A stretch of DNA of 32,000 bases from NCBI RefSeq assembly GCF_000011125.1, contig NC_000854.2, forward strand, positions 1,110,001 to 1,142,000, in the 5' to 3' direction. A model generated the notes under the pieces. The model was not told the DNA's origin. It was given only the letters and a program-made list of their open reading frames with translations, and ran no database searches. Of the stretch, positions 22,370 to 30,064 are shown piece by piece. Positions within the stretch are counted from its first letter, which is position 1, and the number at the start of each line of letters is the position of its first letter. Both the position numbers and the translations under genes were made by a program. Source of the DNA: Aeropyrum pernix K1. GTDB lineage: Archaea; Thermoproteota; Thermoprotei_A; Sulfolobales; Acidilobaceae.

Positions 22370-23172
22370 TGATTGACGCTGAGCAGCTTAGGAGGGTTAG
22401 TGTGAAGGTCTCCTCTGAGACTGCAGGGCTTCTCAGGGATCTAGCGTGCAGCGAGGACCTGGGCAGAGTTGTATCGGGTGAGACGACTGTAGCCGACAAG
22501 AGGGCTGAAGACTATATCTTGGATCTGCTGCGAAGAGAGCTAGGCCAAGTCCAGGTCATAAGCGAGGAGGCTGGAGGCGTGGCTTCAAAAACGTCTGACG
22601 CGCCCATAGCCCTCGTAGACCCGCTGGACGGGAGCACGAACTACCTCTCGTGCATTACATGGTGTTCTGTCAGCGTTGCATTCGCCGACCCTCGGAGCGG
22701 CGAGATTCTCGCAGGATCGGTAGCCCCCGTCTACGCCGGTATGCCGGTCTCCTTCGCACGCGGCAAGGGCTGTTATCATGGGGGGTTAAAGGTTGAAGAC
22801 CCCAGTATACGGGGGTCGATAATATCGGTCTACGTCGACGAGCCTGGGGCTATAGAGTCTGTGGCAGGCGCCATAGGCAGGTTGAAGGGTGTGAGGAGGG
22901 ACTTCAAAGTCAGGAGTCTAGGCAGCGCCGCCCTCGAGCTTGCCTACACCGCCATCGGCTATATAGCTGTGTTTGCAGACCTTAGGGCGAGGCTCCGCAA
23001 CATAGATGTGGCCGCTGCTGTCGGCGCTGTTAGAGAGTGTGGCGGAGTTGTTACCGACGCGCACGGCCAGCCTCTTAGGATCGGCGTGTGGCGCGTCGAG
23101 CGCGTGGGCAGCGTGGTGGCTTCGCTGGACGAGGCCTTAGCTAGGATTGCTGTTGGAGGCGGGAGTGGATAA
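22366..23172 (+). CDS. suhB: inositol monophosphatase / fructose-1,6-bisphosphatase family phosphatase
   Basis: Motifs VISEEAG, LVDPLDGSTNY and NIDVAAAVGAVRECGG. The ATGA start/stop overlap with the upstream gene is at 22366-22369. Confidence 0.8.
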   Translation: MMIDAEQLRRVSVKVSSETAGLLRDLACSEDLGRVVSGETTVADKRAEDYILDLLRRELGQVQVISEEAGGVASKTSDAPIALVDPLDGSTNYLSCITWCSVSVAFADPRSGEILAGSVAPVYAGMPVSFARGKGCYHGGLKVEDPSIRGSIISVYVDEPGAIESVAGAIGRLKGVRRDFKVRSLGSAALELAYTAIGYIAVFADLRARLRNIDVAAAVGAVRECGGVVTDAHGQPLRIGVWRVERVGSVVASLDEALARIAVGGGSG

Positions 23173-23202
23173 GCTTTGGACGCCGCGGCGGGAGCCAGGC
23201 CT

Positions 23203-24036
23203 ATGTGCAGTGTTTGCGGCGTCAGACCGGCTGTCTTCTACAGGAGGTTCAGCGGCCACCGGCTGTGCAGCAGGTGTATGAGGACCTCGCTCGAGAGGGG
23301 GGTCAAGAGGAGTCTCCGCGGCTCGAACGTTTTCAGGCCGGGGGTTAGCATCCTTGTCTACCCCTCTGCCACTAGCCCCCCATCTAGCCTGGCATTCGCC
23401 AGGCTAGTTGGCCTCGTTGAGAGGAGTTATGGGGGGAGAGTCTATACAGTGTTGCCCAGCTATTTTAGTGCCCGCCAAGGGCTTAACCTGCTCAAGGATG
23501 TCGTTGAGCTTGTTGAGCCGCCACCGCCGGTGGAGAGAGCTGCCGGGCGTCTTGAGGACGAGGTGTGGGCGCCCAGGCTTTTGAGATTGGAGAGGGGTTT
23601 AGCCTCCGTTTCCGCCGAGCTGTTAGGGGTTGACGCAGCGGTCCTACCCGTGTCTAGAACCGTCATAAGCATGGCTGGCCTTGAAGCCCTGATATCTTCT
23701 AGACTACACTACATGTGGGATCTTGACGTCGCAGAGGCGGGAGGCGGCAGGCCCGTTGTGCTGGGGCTTAGGAGTGTTGAGGCCGAACTCATAGCGGGGT
23801 ATGCAGCGCTAGAGAGTTTCGACGCCACGTCCAGAGTGAGGCCAAAGTATGTTTACAAGCACGTGTACAAAGCCCTGGTCACCGACGACAAGCCGGAGCT
23901 GGAGTTCAGCAGCTCCTCCACTATAAGCCTTCTGGCGCGCGCCTCGAAGATCAGTGGTTGCAAGTGTCGAGCCTGCGGCGCTCCAGTCCCATGTGGAAGC
24001 AAGTACTGCGAGGACTGCCATACTATATGGGTTTGA
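23203..24036 (+). CDS. TtuA/NcsA(CTU1)-like zinc-ribbon protein lacking the PP-loop (probable pseudoenzyme)
   Basis: N-terminal CSVCG...LCSRC and C-terminal CKCRACG...CEDC zinc ribbons are placed as in 2-thiouridine synthetases. The SGGKDS position reads YPSATSPPSS. The GH..DD..ET position reads VSRTVISMAGLEAL. The EAELIAGYAAL segment is retained. Confidence 0.5.
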   Translation: MCSVCGVRPAVFYRRFSGHRLCSRCMRTSLERGVKRSLRGSNVFRPGVSILVYPSATSPPSSLAFARLVGLVERSYGGRVYTVLPSYFSARQGLNLLKDVVELVEPPPPVERAAGRLEDEVWAPRLLRLERGLASVSAELLGVDAAVLPVSRTVISMAGLEALISSRLHYMWDLDVAEAGGGRPVVLGLRSVEAELIAGYAALESFDATSRVRPKYVYKHVYKALVTDDKPELEFSSSSTISLLARASKISGCKCRACGAPVPCGSKYCEDCHTIWV

Positions 24037-24243
24037 GAGTGCACATATATGGCTCTGGGCTCGGGAGGATAGGCGCGTGGGATGACGAGCGGGGATCCGT
24101 ATTCGTATCGTGAGTGTTGTAAGCGTGGCGTCCGGAGCCCGCCTAAGGGCTGTGACGTCGAGGGCCGGCGCTACTGACCCTGGAGTTTTCCACGTTTAAA
24201 TCCTGCTAAATCCAGATAAAGATAGTTGGTGGCTCGTGCTGTG

Positions 24244-24483
24244 ATGGCGGAAGCTATTGTCGCCTACGTTCTGATAAACGTTGACGTTGGGAAGGAGAAG
24301 GAGGTGTTGGAGGAGATTCTGAAGAGGTATGGCAGGAATGTGACGGAGGCTAGGGTCACCTACGGGGATTTCGACCTGATTGTGAGGCTGGAGGCCGGCA
24401 ACATGAGGCTCCTGGACAAGATAGTCACCGGCATCAGGAGCATACCCGGGGTTCTCAGGACTACCACCCTCATAGCCTCCTAG
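24244..24483 (+). CDS. stand-alone Lrp/AsnC ligand-binding (RAM) domain protein
   Basis: AIVAYVLINVDVGKEKEV...GDFDLIVRLEA...IRSIPGVLRTTTLI is a typical RAM domain. The track start is TTG at 24226. The 3' end overlaps the pelota 3' end by 14 nt (convergent genes). Confidence 0.75.
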   Translation: MAEAIVAYVLINVDVGKEKEVLEEILKRYGRNVTEARVTYGDFDLIVRLEAGNMRLLDKIVTGIRSIPGVLRTTTLIAS

Positions 24484-25540
24484 CCTCCTGCGGGACCGGG
24501 TACCTCAGAAGCGCTATTACTCCGCCGAAGCTCACGAGCCTCTCCCCCGCGGGCGAGTCGCCCGGGATTATTATGACTCTCCCCCCCATAGATTCTACGA
24601 GCCTCAGGGCCTCGTCAACAGCCTCCCTCACCGCATCGTCCGGGGAGTGGAGGAGGGTGTCTACGAGGAGCACTGTATCGACAGCTCCCATCCGGGCGAC
24701 GGCGAGGACCTCGCCGGGTGTGTAGGCCACCGTATCTCTAGATTTCGCTATCCTCCTGAGAAACTCTTCAAGCACTCCCTCCGCCTCCACTATGCTCAGC
24801 TCCCTCAGAATCCTCGTCACACTCTCCCTCCTGAGGGCTTCTCTAACCCCTGCTACCCCTCCCATGGATGTGTCTACTGTAGCTACCTTGAGCGAGGGCA
24901 TGGCTCGCTGCACCTTCTCGGCGACACTAGTCTTGAGCTGTCCGGGGCCTGCGATAACGGCAATAGGAGACCTGTGCCTAGCCGCCTCCTCTACTATCCT
25001 CTTCGCAGCCCGGTCCACATACTTCTCTACCTCCTGCTCCCGCGACGGATCATCCTTTCCGGGGAGCCTAGCAGAAGTGTCTTCGAGAATCTTCATGCCG
25101 TGCCCAGCTAGCACAGCAAGGGCGAACTCGTCGTAGTCTACCGCAGCTATTACAGCAGTACCCCTTGCCCTTCCCGAGGCAAGCCTTTCCAGCTCCTGCT
25201 CGCTCCACCCCTTATCCCTCTCAACTACAAGCCAGGTCCCTATCGAGACAGCCGTGGAGTGGCGCCTTCCCTTCACGCCAAACTCGTCCGGCCCCTCAAC
25301 GACTATCCCACTTATCCTCAGCTTCCCCGTGAAAGGCTGAAACTCTATGGAGTCGAGTCTTATCCTGAGTGTCATGACAACTCTCTCCTTCCTGCCCGAG
25401 CCGACCGGGACGTCTCTGGAGGTGCGTATCCTAACGACATCGCCGGGCCTAAGCGTTATCCTCAGCAGCCAGAGGTCCTCCTCGCTCTCCGGCCTAAGCC
25501 TCACTATCCTCCTTTTATTGTCGAGGACCTCGACGCGCAA
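24470..25540 (-). CDS. pelA: Pelota (Dom34 homologue, ribosome rescue / mRNA surveillance)
   Basis: 356 aa. The N-terminus MRVEVLDNKRRIVRLRPESEEDLWLLRITLRPGDVV and the eRF1-like central and C-terminal domains fit. The start is TTG at 25540, with an in-frame TAG two codons upstream. Confidence 0.85.
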   Translation of the reverse strand: MRVEVLDNKRRIVRLRPESEEDLWLLRITLRPGDVVRIRTSRDVPVGSGRKERVVMTLRIRLDSIEFQPFTGKLRISGIVVEGPDEFGVKGRRHSTAVSIGTWLVVERDKGWSEQELERLASGRARGTAVIAAVDYDEFALAVLAGHGMKILEDTSARLPGKDDPSREQEVEKYVDRAAKRIVEEAARHRSPIAVIAGPGQLKTSVAEKVQRAMPSLKVATVDTSMGGVAGVREALRRESVTRILRELSIVEAEGVLEEFLRRIAKSRDTVAYTPGEVLAVARMGAVDTVLLVDTLLHSPDDAVREAVDEALRLVESMGGRVIIIPGDSPAGERLVSFGGVIALLRYPVPQEARRL

Positions 25541-25576
25541 ACCCTATCCACCCACAATAAAACTGGGGCAGAAACA

Positions 25577-26692
25577 CTAAGCTGTAACTTTCTGTATCGG
25601 ACTGTATCTTTCTATACCGCGTAGGGCTATTAGGTAGGCTGATGTTGAATGCCTATCTAAGCCGTATCTCTTCATTATCTTATCGTGTTCTTCAGAATGC
25701 GTCGTCCTCCTTGGGTCTACATATTCTACCCTAATAGCATATAGTGGTGTTTTCATAGTTATCATTTCTATTATTCTACTCCTGAATACAGAGACTCTCC
25801 AGTTGTAGTTCCTATGTAGTCTCTTACCATTTCTTATCCAAAGCAGTTTTAGTTTCCCGAGTACATCTGGGTTCTCTAGGAATAATGTTTTGACTCCATG
25901 ATGATAGGCGTATTTAAGCATATCGTGAACAGTCATCCCTATAATGCTTCTTGCCCTCCTACTTCTACATCCCTTTCTTGATGCTTCCTCAAACCAGAAA
26001 GTCTTTACATGCCTTAGCCTACCATACCTATCAACTACTGCTAGGTTGGCTCTATCAACGTTAACATCTACACCGCCGTAGAGTTTCCCATAGTTTCTCC
26101 TATATCTAGTCATATGCTTGTAGTAGAAGTCTATGGGTATTGTAAGCTGTATCTCTCCATGAACCCACAGCCTGTTTTTCCTAACACCATAATCCTTGAT
26201 AACTATTCTAGCTGTATGTTTCTGTCTCTCTTCGAGAATCTTGTCGAGCAAAACCTTGTAGTTCTTGGGTATTGTGGGCTTAACAACTATTCTATCCTTT
26301 TCTCCATTGTAGCCTATAGTTGTTATGTAGAAGCTGTAGTCATCCTTTAGGGTAATGTTCCTTACTGGATATTCCTTCTCAGCCTGCTGAAACATCAGCC
26401 AATCTCCAAGCTCTACCTCTTTGAAGCCAACTCCCAGTTGTCTGCAAGACTCGTAAATTCCACGTACAAGCGTGATAACTCCATCAACATACCTACGATT
26501 AGGTATCACCTCATAGATTGCCTTCCTAAAGGTGTTTTTCCAGCCAATGTCAGTAGCAGGTAGTATGGGTGTTTGCTTGGCTAAACTGAGCATTCTATGA
26601 GTAGCAGTCTTAAACAACCATGCAGTACTGAACAAGTCCCCAGCTTCGCCACCTCCAACATTAAATGGTAGTGTAAGCGTTATGTAGCTCAT
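25577..26692 (-). CDS. tnpB: TnpB/OrfB-like RuvC nuclease, zinc-finger-less variant
   Basis: 371 aa from ATG 26692. RuvC-I is GGVDVNVDR (D209) and RuvC-II is LFLENP (E273). VEYVDPRRTT corresponds to the V.P.YTSQ position. RuvC-III is GLDRHSTSAYLIALRG (D346). No CxxC pairs are present. The track N-terminal extension to 26833 runs through GC-rich hairpins and is unlikely to be coding. Confidence 0.7.
   Translation of the reverse strand: MSYITLTLPFNVGGGEAGDLFSTAWLFKTATHRMLSLAKQTPILPATDIGWKNTFRKAIYEVIPNRRYVDGVITLVRGIYESCRQLGVGFKEVELGDWLMFQQAEKEYPVRNITLKDDYSFYITTIGYNGEKDRIVVKPTIPKNYKVLLDKILEERQKHTARIVIKDYGVRKNRLWVHGEIQLTIPIDFYYKHMTRYRRNYGKLYGGVDVNVDRANLAVVDRYGRLRHVKTFWFEEASRKGCRSRRARSIIGMTVHDMLKYAYHHGVKTLFLENPDVLGKLKLLWIRNGKRLHRNYNWRVSVFRSRIIEMITMKTPLYAIRVEYVDPRRTTHSEEHDKIMKRYGLDRHSTSAYLIALRGIERYSPIQKVTA
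25582..25613. repeat. three CTGTA (TACAG on minus) repeats phased at 10 nt, within a 12-nt near-repeat
   Basis: CTGTA occurs at 25582, 25592 and 25602. CTGTAaCTTTCT (25582-25593) pairs with CTGTAtCTTTCT (25602-25613). All lie inside the last codons of tnpB. Confidence 0.8.
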
Positions 26693-26709
26693 ATTGGGGA
26701 ATCCCCAAT
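26693..26709. promoter_or_regulatory. perfect 17-bp palindrome ATTGGGGAATCCCCAAT abutting the tnpB ATG
   Basis: An 8-bp arm, 1 central base, and an 8-bp arm, immediately upstream of ATG 26692 on the minus strand. Confidence 0.8.
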
Positions 26710-26713
26710 AAAA

Positions 26714-26737
26714 CTTATAAGGCTTGAAGCTTATAAA
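26714..26737 (-). promoter_or_regulatory. two TATA-like boxes upstream of tnpB
   Basis: On the minus strand, TTTATAAG (26737-26730) and TTATAAG (26720-26714). The proximal box is centred about 25 nt from the ATG, which fits a leaderless transcript. Confidence 0.45.
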
Positions 26738-26744
26738 CCTAACC

Positions 26745-26808
26745 CGGTGACCCCGGGGTTCCCGAGGGAAGCCCCCAGGGGCTTCCGTAGGCGGCCCCGG
26801 GGAGACCG
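26745..26808. repeat. GC-rich compound hairpin (candidate IS left-end structure)
   Basis: The outer arms are CGGTgaCCCCGGGG (26745-26758) and CCCCGGGGagACCG (26795-26808). They enclose an inner hairpin GAAGCCCC-ca-GGGGCTTC (26769-26786). A second stem AGCCGTGCC / GGCACGGTT lies at 26819-26827 and 26859-26867. Confidence 0.7.
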
Positions 26809-26913
26809 TGATGAACCCAGCCGTGCCCGACACAACCTGCTATAATTTGTTACATGAAGGCACGGTTTGGGTGAACGGCTTATTTAGAGGCTCTGCAGGA
26901 TTATGGGGTGTTG

Positions 26914-29427
26914 TTAAGATTTCTTAGCTATGTAATATACGCTGGACCCTGGAATCGCCTCCTCCGAGCCCTCCGGGGGTGCACCGGTGTATGTCCTTAT
27001 AGCTGCTTTGTGGAGAGCCTCGAGATCCCTCCTAGCAGACTCTATACCGCTAGGAACTAGGACCTCCACTGTGTCAAGCGGCTCGTACAGCTTCTTCCCC
27101 ATAGACCTCTTCAGGTTCCATACAGCCTTGTTGACGCTGACTATCAGCCTGGCTTTCCCGGCGAGCTCCCTTCTCTCCTCTGGTGTGAACAGGGGGTCTG
27201 GCCACCTCTGCCTGTGGACTGAGCTGCCATAGAGTCTCCTGTGGATCGCATCCGTAACGAAGGGCATTATGGGTGAGAGGGCTACCAGTATCCTCCTGAG
27301 GAGTTCGTGCAGCGTCGCCCACGCCGCCTCCTGTTCCTCCCTTGTGAATAGTCCCGACCTGTTGTAGGACCTCTCCTTCACTAGCTCTACGTAGTGCGAG
27401 GCGAAGATGTCCCAAGCAAGCTCGTAGATCAGGTTTGCAGGCTCGTACACATCCAGCTCCCCGTAAGCCTTGTCAGCGGCCTCCAGATACTCGTCGGCAA
27501 GAGCTAGGAAAGCCTTGTCAACCTCTGTGGCTTTCTCCAGCGGGCTCCCCTCCGGCCGTGGGAAGCTTGAGACGAACCTCGCCAGGTTCCAAAGCTTCGT
27601 GGCGAAGTTCCTCCCGGTCTTCACCTTGTTCTCGTCGAACCTGTAGTCGTAGCCTAGCTTTGCAGCTATGGCCGCCCAGAACCTGAAGGCGTCTCCCCCA
27701 TACTTAGCTATAATCGGCTCGGGGTCTATCACGTTGCCCAGGCTCTTATGCATAGGCCTGCCCTTCGGGTCGAGGCCGAGCCCCGTTATCCTGACCCACC
27801 TGAAGGCCGGCTTCCCGGTTAGCTGGAGCACCCTTAGGATGCTGTAGTACAGCCACGTCCTGATTATGTCCTGGCCCTGAGGCCTTAGGACGTTGCGCGA
27901 CGCCCTCTCGTAGAACCTCTTATCCCACATCCAGCGGGTCACGTAGAGGGGGCTTATGCTGCTGTCAAACCATGTGTCGAAAACCCTCGTCTCGCCTTTG
28001 AGGTAGCGGCGGGGGGCGCCGCACCTGGGGCAGGAGTCCCAGGGAGGCTCCTCGGCCCACGGCCTGTAGTATCTTCCAGGCTCTGGAACAAGCTTAGCCC
28101 CACACTTCTCGCAGGTCCAGAGGGGTATCTCTGTGCCGTAGAACCTCTCCCTCGATATTGGCCAGTCCATCTTGATGCTGTCTATCCAGTCGTAGAGCTT
28201 CTTGCGGTGCATCTCGGGCTTGAAATCCATCTTAGCCGCAGCCTGCTTCACAGCATCCTTAAAGTCGAGTTGCCTTAGGAACAGCTCCCTCCTATGTATT
28301 ATCTGGAGAGGGGTCTTACACCTCCAGCAGACGGGGACGCTGTGGACGATCCTCTCCTTCTTAACCAGAAGACCCTCCCTCTCCAGTATCTCTGCAATCC
28401 TCCTCCTAGCCTCCTTAACGGGGAGCCCGGCTATGGGGCCGGCATTCTCGTTCATGACGCCGTTCTCGTCTATCAGAACCTTGGGCTTGAGGTCTAGCTC
28501 GAGGAATAGCCTGACATCCTCCTCGTCACCATAGCTGCATATCATCATAAGTCCAGTGCCGAAATCCTTCTTAACGGCAGGGTGCTCAACTATCTTGACC
28601 CTATGCCCGTATAGCGGGGCTATAGCAGTTTTCCCTGCAAGCCCCTTATACCTCTCGTCCTCCGGGTGGTATGCCAGGGCGGCGCAGCCTGCGAGGAGCT
28701 CGGGCCTGGTAGTCGCCACCACCAAGTCCCTACCGTCCTCCTCCAGCCTGTACTTGACGTAGTATATGAAGTCCTCATCCTCCTTGTGCTCTATCTCCGC
28801 CTCGGCCAGGGTCGTCTTACACCTCGGGCACCACCTCACAGGCCTCTCAGCCTCGTATATCAGGCCGCGCCTCCAGAGGTCTATGAAGGTTGCCTGGGTC
28901 ATCGACCTATATCTGGGGCTGTCCGTGCCTTCTCTCCAGTAGTCGAAGCCGCAGCCAAGCCTCCTCCACAGCTGCACTATCTCGCTCTCAACCTTGTCGA
29001 GGAACTCGCTACATAAGGCCAGAAACCTCTCCCTCCCCTCCGTTGTACGGGCCATCTCGTGAGCTACAACCCCGTAGGTCTTCTCCACCTGGACCTCCAC
29101 TGGGAGCCCGTTGCGGTCGGCGTAAAACGGTGCTACGACATTGTATCCTTTCAGCCTGAAATACCTGGCTATCATGTCAATCTGGGTATAATGGGCGGCG
29201 CCGCCAACGTGCCACTTGCCGCTCGGGTATGGGGGCGGCGTGTCTATGACAACAATTTCGCGCGGATCGTCGGGGTCCAGGGTGGACTTGTGCAGGTCCT
29301 CAGCATCCCAGAGGGATAGTAGCTTCTCCTCCTCGCCTATGTCCCACCTCTTCTCCTGGATAGCAGGTTTAAACTCCTCGCCCAAACATGCCACCCAGCA
29401 TAATGCGGGGTAGACCCCGATACTCAT
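26914..29427 (-). CDS. valS: valine--tRNA ligase
   Basis: Motifs IDTPPPYPSGKWHVGG...IARYFRLKGYNV, CP1 editing TTRPELLAGCAALAYHPEDERY and GTGLMMICSYGDEEDV, MHKSLGNVIDP and YGGDAFRFW. The start is uncertain: ATG 29427, GTG 29394 or TTG 29385. The track start at 29583 is probably too long. Confidence 0.85.
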   Translation of the reverse strand: MSIGVYPALCWVACLGEEFKPAIQEKRWDIGEEEKLLSLWDAEDLHKSTLDPDDPREIVVIDTPPPYPSGKWHVGGAAHYTQIDMIARYFRLKGYNVVAPFYADRNGLPVEVQVEKTYGVVAHEMARTTEGRERFLALCSEFLDKVESEIVQLWRRLGCGFDYWREGTDSPRYRSMTQATFIDLWRRGLIYEAERPVRWCPRCKTTLAEAEIEHKEDEDFIYYVKYRLEEDGRDLVVATTRPELLAGCAALAYHPEDERYKGLAGKTAIAPLYGHRVKIVEHPAVKKDFGTGLMMICSYGDEEDVRLFLELDLKPKVLIDENGVMNENAGPIAGLPVKEARRRIAEILEREGLLVKKERIVHSVPVCWRCKTPLQIIHRRELFLRQLDFKDAVKQAAAKMDFKPEMHRKKLYDWIDSIKMDWPISRERFYGTEIPLWTCEKCGAKLVPEPGRYYRPWAEEPPWDSCPRCGAPRRYLKGETRVFDTWFDSSISPLYVTRWMWDKRFYERASRNVLRPQGQDIIRTWLYYSILRVLQLTGKPAFRWVRITGLGLDPKGRPMHKSLGNVIDPEPIIAKYGGDAFRFWAAIAAKLGYDYRFDENKVKTGRNFATKLWNLARFVSSFPRPEGSPLEKATEVDKAFLALADEYLEAADKAYGELDVYEPANLIYELAWDIFASHYVELVKERSYNRSGLFTREEQEAAWATLHELLRRILVALSPIMPFVTDAIHRRLYGSSVHRQRWPDPLFTPEERRELAGKARLIVSVNKAVWNLKRSMGKKLYEPLDTVEVLVPSGIESARRDLEALHKAAIRTYTGAPPEGSEEAIPGSSVYYIAKKS

Positions 29428-29599
29428 AATTTTTAGCAGTAGAAGCCGATAGGGAGAGGGGGCGCGCTGGATGGAGGACGAGCCTGTTGAGACGGGGTTT
29501 GACAGCGGGCCATCCCAGGAGGAGAGTGTCGAGTGCGGGTGGGTTGAGGCTGCTAAGCGGGCATACGGTCTCGAGGTCCTCATAGCTTCAGCATGGACG

Positions 29600-30001
29600 A
29601 TGTTTATATCTCTAGTGGCGGGCGCCCTCGGGGGGCCGGAGGCAGCATCCCTCGTAGTATCGCTATCCCTAGTGACATACCTGGCGCTATCGCTCTTCGA
29701 AACCCGCCTACGTCTAGCATCTCTCGCCGCAGCCGTGGGAGCGCATGTAGGCGCAGTAGCCTCTTACTACTCAAACCCCCTGCCCCTACCGTTTATCGTG
29801 GTTGAGCGTGGATCCCAAGGGGCTATAATCAACATTGATATAGTCCAGATAGTGGTGCTGACGGAGATAGCTAACCTCATGGTATCAGCCCCAGCCTGCA
29901 GGTGGGAGAAAGACTCAAAAACCCCAGTGGAGATTAATAGTGAGAACGGGCCGCAGGCCGGAGCACCTGAGCCTACAAGCGCGGGAGCCGCGGTAGTATA
30001 G
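29600..30001 (+). CDS. hypothetical small membrane protein (doubtful)
   Basis: Hydrophobic segments MFISLVAGALGG and LVVSLSLVTYLALSLF. The ORF's last 15 nt overlap the tRNA-Glu gene, and the likely tRNA promoter lies inside it. Confidence 0.3.
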   Translation: MFISLVAGALGGPEAASLVVSLSLVTYLALSLFETRLRLASLAAAVGAHVGAVASYYSNPLPLPFIVVERGSQGAIINIDIVQIVVLTEIANLMVSAPACRWEKDSKTPVEINSENGPQAGAPEPTSAGAAVV

Positions 30002-30064
30002 CCCGGCCCAGTATGCGGGCCTCTCGAGCCCGTGACCCGGGTTCAAATCCCGGCCGCGGCACCA
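29987..30064 (+). tRNA. tRNA-Glu (anticodon CUC) with encoded CCA
   Basis: Hand-folded cloverleaf. Acceptor stem GCCGCGG/CCGCGGC, D arm GTAT-AGCCCGGCCCA-GTAT, anticodon stem CGGGC/GCCCG. The anticodon loop is CTCTCGA, the T arm is CCGGG-TTCAAAT-CCCGG, the discriminator is A, then CCA. Confidence 0.9.

Follow-up and report, generated by a model that had tools for sequence, protein, structure and literature searches.

A mobile element of Aeropyrum pernix that pairs a zinc-ribbon-less nuclease of predicted TnpB/Cas12f fold with a divergent candidate guide RNA gene

Introduction

In known TnpB elements, the guide RNA is cut from the nuclease's own transcript, an arrangement that couples and limits the expression of both. 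The omega RNA lies over the 3′ end of the nuclease open reading frame (ORF) in all TnpB elements characterised so far (PMC8612924, PMC10097598). Here we describe a mobile element of the hyperthermophilic archaeon Aeropyrum pernix K1 in which the layout is different: a nuclease gene of predicted TnpB/Cas12f fold (APE_1804) is preceded by a structured RNA scaffold that lies on the opposite strand and ends exactly at the element boundary. All positions refer to the 32,000-nt stretch that was analysed (NC_000854.2, 1,110,001–1,142,000; hereafter the window). Related loci from genomes and metagenomes carry L-numbers, the metagenome loci having been collected by a scan with close homologues of the ORF, and conservation within the family refers to an alignment of 28 diverse full-length members.

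Results

The ORF encodes a nuclease with the predicted fold of TnpB and Cas12f

The element and its single ORF occupy the following positions.

25570..26878, minus strand: mobile element of about 1309 bp (~1.31 kb) with one ORF and one divergent RNA gene, delimited by sharp homology ends
25577..26692, minus strand: nuclease gene APE_1804, 371 aa, zinc-finger-less, predicted TnpB/Cas12f fold, with the triad D209, E273 and D346

A preliminary description of this locus, made from the sequence alone, had recognised a 371-aa ORF of foreign composition that encodes a TnpB-type RuvC nuclease with an intact D209/E273/D346 triad and a VDPRRTT motif, lacks the zinc ribbon and is accompanied by no transposase. 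These points hold up in the analyses that follow. The ORF is real and begins with the ATG at 26692. Extension to a GTG further upstream, up to 26833, gives a form of 418 aa that is 100% identical to APE_1804 as annotated in K1; its first 47 residues (26693–26833, minus strand) cross the promoter spacer and the antisense RNA scaffold described below. Because homologues begin at the ATG (363–371 aa), this annotated N-terminus is almost certainly spurious, and the comparison corrects an annotation in which 47 extra residues are read across an RNA gene. The G+C content is 43% at 25681–25740, 33% at 25741–25800 and 66.7% at the 5′ end of pelota (25441–25500), exactly as described before (43%, 33% and 67%). 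Across the ORF it is 41.1%, compared with 55.5% for the whole window. The ORFs of 50 loci all have a G+C content of about 41%, while the composition of their flanks spans 33%–61%; the foreign look in Aeropyrum is thus the consequence of a constant composition of the ORF.

The catalytic residues lie in the motifs GGVDVNV (D209), LFLENP (E273) and GLDRHSTSAYLIA (D346), and the protein also contains VDPRRTT. Residues D209, N211, E273, N297, P327 and H348 are invariant or nearly so, and D346 is kept in 27 of the 28 members. None of the 28 contains the CxxC...CxxC zinc ribbon between RuvC-II and RuvC-III. Comparison with six homologues gave ratios of nonsynonymous to synonymous substitution rates (dN/dS) of 0.07–0.14, with synonymous sites near saturation, and the ORF is under strong purifying selection.

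Sequence models place the protein at a distance from curated TnpB families. Pfam-A (in a model set without PF27229) gave no match to the window protein, including the TnpB models OrfB_IS605 and OrfB_Zn_ribbon; PF07282 was weakly matched by two of the 28 members (E 0.002), and the NCBIfam model TIGR01766 (TnpB-related) scored 13.8 bits, below its curated cut-off of 32. Pfam PF27229 (SSO2105_N) is annotated for 119 of 120 proteins among the matches listed, including APE_1276, which is 99% identical to the window protein. A search of PDB sequences with the single protein found nothing, so that the link to Cas12 and TnpB comes only from the family profile and from fold comparison. The family-profile search of the same sequences matched only Cas12j, Cas12X, Cas12f and TnpB-type chains (E 1e-3 to 4e-2). 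In the best of these alignments, to Cas12j/Cas12X, the E273 region, VnPrgTS and glDrHtaSAYlIA are aligned with MEN, VDPRHTSQ and IDADVNAAINIA, respectively.

An AlphaFold2 model built from the 28-sequence alignment has a predicted local distance difference test score (pLDDT) of 89.5 and a predicted template modelling score (pTM) of 0.80. Its secondary-structure elements follow the order of the RNase H/RuvC fold, in which three strands and a helix are succeeded by a fourth strand, helices, strand 5 and a closing helix. Strand 1 terminates in D209 and strand 4 in E273, the last helix begins with D346, and a short helix (residues 334–343) occupies the position of the zinc ribbon. When this model was compared with the PDB by Foldseek, the top 20 matches were all Cas12f or Cas12k (E 8e-10 to 5e-6; template modelling (TM) scores of 0.32–0.57 on the query), with alignments that span the full length and show the WED, REC and RuvC architecture; lower-ranked matches include Cas12g, Cas12m and RuvC. 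The structure comparison proposed in the preliminary description thus points to a TnpB/Cas12f fold with a RuvC D-E-D triad. Low dN/dS, the fold and the conserved triad together argue that the protein is a functional, zinc-finger-less member of the TnpB/Cas12 fold class that is probably active, its catalytic activity being a prediction.

Homologues number 749 at E<=1e-3, and the family, a small and self-contained group, comprises 202 representatives at the same threshold among 1.84 billion proteins. Its named matches belong to Thermoproteota (Aeropyrum, Vulcanisaeta, Desulfurococcus and Zestosphaera, with Ignisphaera among the genome loci), and some matches are Njordarchaeia. Viral contigs that were searched contained no relatives, and there is therefore no evidence for a viral carrier.

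A structured RNA scaffold lies antisense to the ORF at the opposite end of the element

The region between the ORF and the far end of the element contains the following features.

26746..26878, plus strand: structured RNA scaffold of 133 nt, a candidate omega-type guide RNA antisense to the ORF, defined by covariance model and covariation; its 5′ end is perhaps at about 26737
26751–26804, plus strand: stem-loop A, a 12-bp outer helix with an inner hairpin
26802–26816, plus strand: conserved (invariant) linker GAGACCGUGAUGAAC
26815–26872, plus strand: stem-loop B, 12 bp with a large A/U-rich loop
26873–26878, plus strand: tail GAACGG
26879..26898, plus strand: predicted guide segment CTTATTTAGAGGCTCTGCAG, flanking DNA read through from the scaffold, of assumed length, between the element and the stop codon of the valyl-tRNA synthetase (ValRS) gene

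Obvious compensatory changes are found in the 186-nt region upstream of the ORF. Folding of this region on the ORF strand produced a weaker, partly broken structure and was discarded, and the opposite strand was therefore tested. Folding is stronger on the antisense strand for 42 of 43 unique sequences, with a mean of −61.6 versus −48.9 kcal/mol. Helices derived from an alignment based only on sequence contain G.U and A.C combinations in a ratio of 112:19 when read on the antisense strand, and several positions are almost always G.U. From 5′ to 3′, the scaffold consists of GGUGA, stem-loop A, the linker, stem-loop B and the tail GUGAACGG, the final G of which is the final base of the element. 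Because the 3′ end of the scaffold coincides with the end of the element, the adjoining flank could supply a guide.

A covariance model of the scaffold has one match in the window (26746–26878, plus strand; 107 bits), compared with 7 bits for the same region on the ORF strand. It detects the scaffold at the same position and in the same orientation in essentially every locus as well as in two miniature derivatives that lack the ORF. In 91 distinct sequences, 92.5% of cells are paired, versus 71% after shuffling and 40–51% with slid partners. Both sides change in 27 of 30 pairs, compensatory cells number 521 versus 168 expected, and none of 500 shuffles reaches the observed value on any measure. 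The scaffold of the window folds with z = −3.74.

Rfam contains a family that resembles this RNA. At a relaxed threshold, RF02814 Sso133 (Sulfolobus sRNA133) matches on the same strand with its full 73-nt model (37.3 bits, E=6e-6), covering stem-loop A plus 9 nt upstream, that is, only the 5′ half of the scaffold. Three further loci (L006, L024 and L029) match on the same strand with 33.7–34.5 bits, and at gathering level no match was found in 20 loci. The scaffold thus appears to be related to the Sso133 family rather than to be a curated member of it.

Comparison of two metagenome loci reveals variation inside the scaffold. L069 (1293–2798) and L076 (331–1843) are 91.7% identical across the ORF, stem-loop A and the GGGC-side flank. 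They carry different types of stem-loop B and unrelated guide-side flanks, with the break falling within the conserved linker. This pattern suggests that two elements recombined within the scaffold, an exchange that would replace the guide-proximal half together with its flank.

Two conserved TATA-like boxes separate the divergent genes

Across loci, the spacer between the scaffold and the ATG measures 49–53 nt (about 53 bp here) and contains two conserved TATA-like boxes and a palindrome.

26714..26721, no strand assigned: palindromic TATA-like CTTATAAG (box 2), TT-TA invariant
26730..26737, minus strand: TATA-like TTTATAAG (box 1), ending 23 nt before GGGGATTCCCC on the ORF strand
26696..26706, no strand assigned: perfect palindrome GGGGATTCCCC, 3 nt upstream of the ATG, nearly unchanged in all loci, with GGG and CCC invariant in 23 loci

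On the plus strand, 24 nt lie between the end of the palindromic box CTTATAAG and the 5′ end of the scaffold; in the other direction, on the minus strand, the distance from the box to the ATG is 21 nt. These box spacings would fit the geometry of archaeal promoters. GGGGATTCCCC may mark the 5′ end or leader of the mRNA, where it could form a hairpin, or may act in ribosome binding or as an operator for a protein.

The element is mobile and has sharply defined ends

The ORF-side end of the element and its adjoining host motif are as follows.

25570..25576, minus strand: terminal motif TGTTTCT (family consensus G-WWW-C-W), between the stop codon and GCCC, from the end logo
25565..25569, plus strand: GGGGC, conserved target-site motif and candidate target-adjacent motif (TAM) with the core GGGC, host-derived and outside the mobile DNA

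Nucleotide homology of 69–77% to more than 100 archaeal loci covers about 186 nt before the ATG, the ORF and about 12 nt beyond the stop codon; it breaks off abruptly at these points, and the flanks beyond both ends are unrelated. Chance is excluded by the 749 homologues, the sharp-ended nucleotide homology at about 100 loci and the dN/dS of 0.07–0.14. The preliminary description had placed the element at 25541–26867 and had suggested a survey for further copies and empty sites to define its ends and TAM. That survey moved the boundaries to 25570 and 26878, assigned GGGGC at 25565–25569 to the host, and provided a second K1 copy, an empty site in A. camini and a candidate GGGC TAM. Terminal inverted repeats were not found at the element ends, nor was a target-site duplication found in the flanks. 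The two ends were also inspected for mutual pairing, the ORF-side end for a hairpin and the end types for co-variation, and nothing consistent was seen.

K1 contains two copies of the element (APE_1804 and APE_1276; 99% identical). In another Aeropyrum strain (L112), an identical ORF lies at a different site, downstream of a glycosyltransferase gene. In A. camini, ValRS and pelota are 65 nt apart and have no element between them, and in Vulcanisaeta the element splits an amidohydrolase gene. The two miniature derivatives, of 226 and 295 bp, retain both ends, the promoter region and the scaffold without the ORF. Two K1 copies, a different site in another strain, the empty site, the miniatures and the unrelated flanks establish that the element is mobile. 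Its insertion beside a fixed short motif (3′ of GGGC), with neither target duplication nor terminal inverted repeats, is of the IS200/IS605 type; that type is also characterised by an omega RNA overlapping the ORF 3′ end on the same strand, but no structure was found there, the only conserved scaffold being the divergent one at the other end. We conclude that the element is non-autonomous and resembles the IS200/IS605 family. TnpA was not found with any family member examined. The immediate neighbours encode pelota, ValRS and an Lrp/AsnC-domain protein, and neither a repeat array in 23000–30000 nor adjacent cas genes were found, as would mark a CRISPR locus.

Several further observations concern individual copies. 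At the second Aeropyrum site (L112, 1125–1139), the guide-side flank ...GCTGAACG adjoins CCGTTCACC and forms a near-palindrome with the element end (TGAACG|CCGTTCA), which may reflect chance, a target preference or the remnant of an inverted copy. Contigs L110 and L111 (1–54), from Logan assemblies of the Aeropyrum read sets SRR263742xx-263743xx, begin exactly 30 nt inside the ORF-side end, and L112 (2440–2452), also from a Logan assembly of Aeropyrum reads, stops exactly at ...GCCCC. Contig breaks at repeats are typical of de Bruijn graphs, and these breaks at element ends therefore constitute independent evidence that the element is multi-copy in those strains. In Vulcanisaeta sp. JCM 14467 (L001, 5272–7449), the split amidohydrolase also lacks about 200 codons next to the RNA/guide-side end, corresponding to approximately residues 98–298 of the PDB homologue 3igh, which indicates that a flanking deletion of about 600 bp accompanied or followed the insertion.

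In the window, a TATA-like AGTTTTATTG (25541–25564; A. camini counterpart TGTTTTGACG) adjoins the GGGGC motif and the element end, and probably drives a leaderless pelota gene from a TTG start at 25540. The insertion thus lies immediately upstream of this probable pelota promoter and left it undamaged.

The conserved GGGC motif derives from the host

Among 47 unique ORF-side ends, G-WWW-C-W-GCCC is conserved, with GCCC invariant and the next bases nearly random. In the RNA-side flank, which is otherwise random, the base at +1 is usually a pyrimidine (T 43, C 23, A 7, G 0; n=73). The interrupted Vulcanisaeta amidohydrolase reads ...KTGWIVG-RG before the element begins, and its intact homologues, which are about 80% identical, read ...W(V/I)(M/I)G-RG(G)WDQ. 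GGGGC is host sequence, because the codons AGG GGC encode the R-G that is conserved in the intact proteins. A reading-frame test of the same gene was set aside as proof of the boundary, both boundary models being in frame; the comparison with intact homologues settled the matter. At the A. camini empty site, GCACTCT stands where A. pernix has GCCCCA, a better fit than a gap of 6 nt would give.

In the direction of the RNA, the order is 5′-GGGC, the element ending in the scaffold, and the flank. Excision would therefore place GGGC directly upstream of the sequence matched by an RNA that reads through into the flank, and this joint would have the same TAM-target geometry as in TnpB and Cas12. 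GGGC likely acts as the TAM.

Other features of the window

The ValRS ORF (26914–29583, minus strand) encodes 889 aa from its first ATG, compared with 822 aa for the A. camini orthologue. Its first ~60 residues look non-homologous, and the true start probably lies downstream of the first ATG. A tRNA-Glu (CUC) gene at 29987–30064 (plus strand) is the sole gathering-level Rfam match in the window.

Discussion

Our results suggest a model in which this is an OMEGA-type (obligate mobile element-guided activity) element in which the guide RNA gene has been reversed and placed under its own promoter, the nuclease-RNA complex cuts the excision joint, and movement depends on a transposase acting in trans; we consider this model rather probable. 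The RNA would be transcribed outward from its own promoter into the flank and thereby gain a 3′ guide that matches the adjoining sequence. Insertion takes place immediately 3′ of GGGC (on the RNA strand), such that excision would join GGGC to the guide-matching flank and recreate TAM plus target. The complex would cut this empty site, and homologous repair from an element-bearing copy would restore the element; movement to new GGGC sites would depend on the transposase supplied in trans. Binding of the scaffold RNA by the nuclease, use of the flank as guide and cleavage of DNA by the complex are thus predicted steps of the model.

Several points weigh against this model. The TAM assignment is based on one interrupted gene and one diverged empty site. 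The Sso133 score of 37.3 bits lies below the gathering score of 44 bits, and transcription of the scaffold in Aeropyrum is a prediction from sequence. The distant members L106 and L107 (28–31% identity to the ORF) gave no match to the scaffold model, and folding of the L106 upstream region yielded no convincing structure; we therefore limit the RNA claim to the APE_1804-like subfamily. No transposase gene was found in the element or in the neighbours examined, and no genome-wide search for one acting in trans was made. Finally, the strand-specific structure could instead act as single-stranded DNA at the transposon end.

This last possibility deserves the closest attention, unlikely as we judge it to be. 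The covarying structure would then consist of DNA, as subterminal hairpins of which one single strand is recognised by a trans-acting transposase as in IS200/IS605, and any guide RNA would come from elsewhere. The structure abuts the element end, the miniatures keep it, and the element inserts beside a fixed short motif without target duplication, as do IS200/IS605 elements. G.T wobble is also tolerated in single-stranded DNA, and the G.U strand bias therefore cannot separate RNA from top-strand DNA. Against DNA hairpins stands the size of the structure, which measures 133–165 nt and comprises two helices of 12 bp, an inner hairpin and a 15-nt linker that is invariant. This is far larger than known transposase-binding hairpins. 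The match to an Rfam family annotated as small RNA (sRNA) and the conserved TATA-like boxes at a fixed distance upstream in the RNA direction also argue for RNA, and no RNA-like structure is present at the ORF-sense 3′ end or elsewhere in the element. The top strand of IS200/IS605 elements carries both transposase-binding hairpins and omega RNA, and the RNA and DNA roles of the structure could coexist here as well.

An antisense RNA might alternatively serve as a cis regulator or antitoxin-like partner of the nuclease gene, acting through promoter competition or pairing with the mRNA 5′ end and guiding no DNA cleavage, an explanation that we regard as distinctly improbable. The promoters are indeed interleaved, each TATA-like box lying between the other box and that box's predicted start, so that initiation on one strand should interfere with initiation on the other, and a conserved palindrome is located at the predicted mRNA 5′ end. 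However, the scaffold (26746–26878) overlaps neither the ORF nor its leader (ATG at 26692), a plain antisense regulator needs no conserved two-domain fold that ends exactly at the element boundary, and the protein has the predicted fold of enzymes that require a guide RNA.

The canonical layout, in which an omega RNA overlaps the 3′ end of the ORF in the same orientation and draws its guide from the pelota-side flank, would agree with every characterised TnpB element and had led the preliminary description to expect a minus-strand RNA of 100–200 nt ending near 25541–25560. That expectation was not borne out, and we see very little chance that this layout applies: the stop codon lies just 7 nt from the element end, the final 170–196 nt of the ORF strand are no more structured than shuffled sequence (z=+0.07 in the window; likewise on average in 49 loci), and the 3′ untranslated part varies in length and sequence between subtypes.

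The preliminary description left open whether the gene is an active element or a domesticated copy, and although the few copies per genome and the position between housekeeping genes would suit a relic, domesticated or inactive, whose role in the host has nothing to do with mobility, we hardly credit that view, since the flanks differ in every lineage, two K1 copies and another strain's site exist, A. camini has an empty site, miniature derivatives occur, and the ORF combines foreign composition with a conserved catalytic triad, all of which speaks for a mobile element.

A literature search did not find this family, its RNA or the divergent arrangement described, inclusion of the family in large TnpB censuses being something that could not be checked; searches on SSO2105, PF27229, APE_1276, Sso133 and TnpB in Aeropyrum or Thermoproteota found nothing relevant. 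The broader proposal is that these loci represent an OMEGA lineage of hyperthermophilic archaea with a separate, divergent guide RNA gene under its own promoter, a ribbonless nuclease of 363–371 aa and a GGGC TAM, in which sRNA133-class RNAs are omega-type guides; in our judgement, the case for and against it is evenly balanced. If it is true, a separately transcribed guide RNA on the opposite strand would show that the coupling of RNA and mRNA in TnpB is not obligatory, and the separate guide gene would resemble a step on the way to CRISPR-Cas12 loci, in which the RNA genes stand apart. A function would also be suggested for an Rfam family annotated merely as an sRNA gene. The protein ranks with the smallest in its class, has no ribbon and originates from organisms that grow at about 90 °C, and it could be a robust, compact scaffold for editing; its candidate G-rich TAM would complement the T-rich ones in use.

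Comparison with known systems

The closest likeness is to TnpB and its omega RNA in IS200/IS605 and IS607 elements, for example ISDra2 TnpB. Shared features are a compact single-ORF nuclease with WED/REC and RuvC parts and a D-E-D triad, a small transposon without terminal inverted repeats or target duplication whose insertion adjoins a short fixed motif, and a structured RNA whose 3′ end lies at the transposon end so that the flank can be the guide. Homing-type maintenance is plausible in both. The element described here differs in that its protein matches no Pfam TnpB model and has no zinc ribbon, its motif is the G-rich GGGC, no TnpA was found, and its RNA gene lies upstream, divergent and under a putative promoter of its own, without same-strand overlap of the ORF 3′ end.

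The C4 zinc finger between RuvC-II and RuvC-III has been lost in some large TnpB branches such as RIIIr-4 (Altae-Tran et al. 2023, PMC10691335), and the absence of the ribbon here therefore does not exclude membership in the TnpB/Cas12 class. RIIIr-4 has a rearranged RuvC-III site, whereas D346 occupies the canonical position. Cas12f (type V-F) and Cas12k are the best full-length structural matches (E ~1e-9, TM 0.44–0.57), and the RuvC-III motif LDRHTASAYLIALRG resembles the motif DADxNAAxNIA. Unlike Cas12f and Cas12k, the present nuclease is borne by a transposon with no CRISPR array or cas genes nearby, is smaller (363–371 aa) and has no zinc ribbon.

Rfam lists Sso133 as an sRNA gene without function or protein partner, and its model corresponds to the 5′ half of the scaffold. 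In the IscB and IsrB OMEGA systems, the guide RNA is encoded upstream of the nuclease, and the transposon end that carries it is opposite to the one used in TnpB systems. That RNA lies on the same strand as the ORF, carries a 5′ guide and works with a Cas9-lineage protein. The Aeropyrum element, by contrast, encodes its RNA on the other strand from the ORF, the guide presumably being at the 3′ end, and its protein is of the Cas12 lineage. Loss of the zinc finger is known already from TnpB clades; for the divergent arrangement of RNA and nuclease, the literature searched contained no earlier account.

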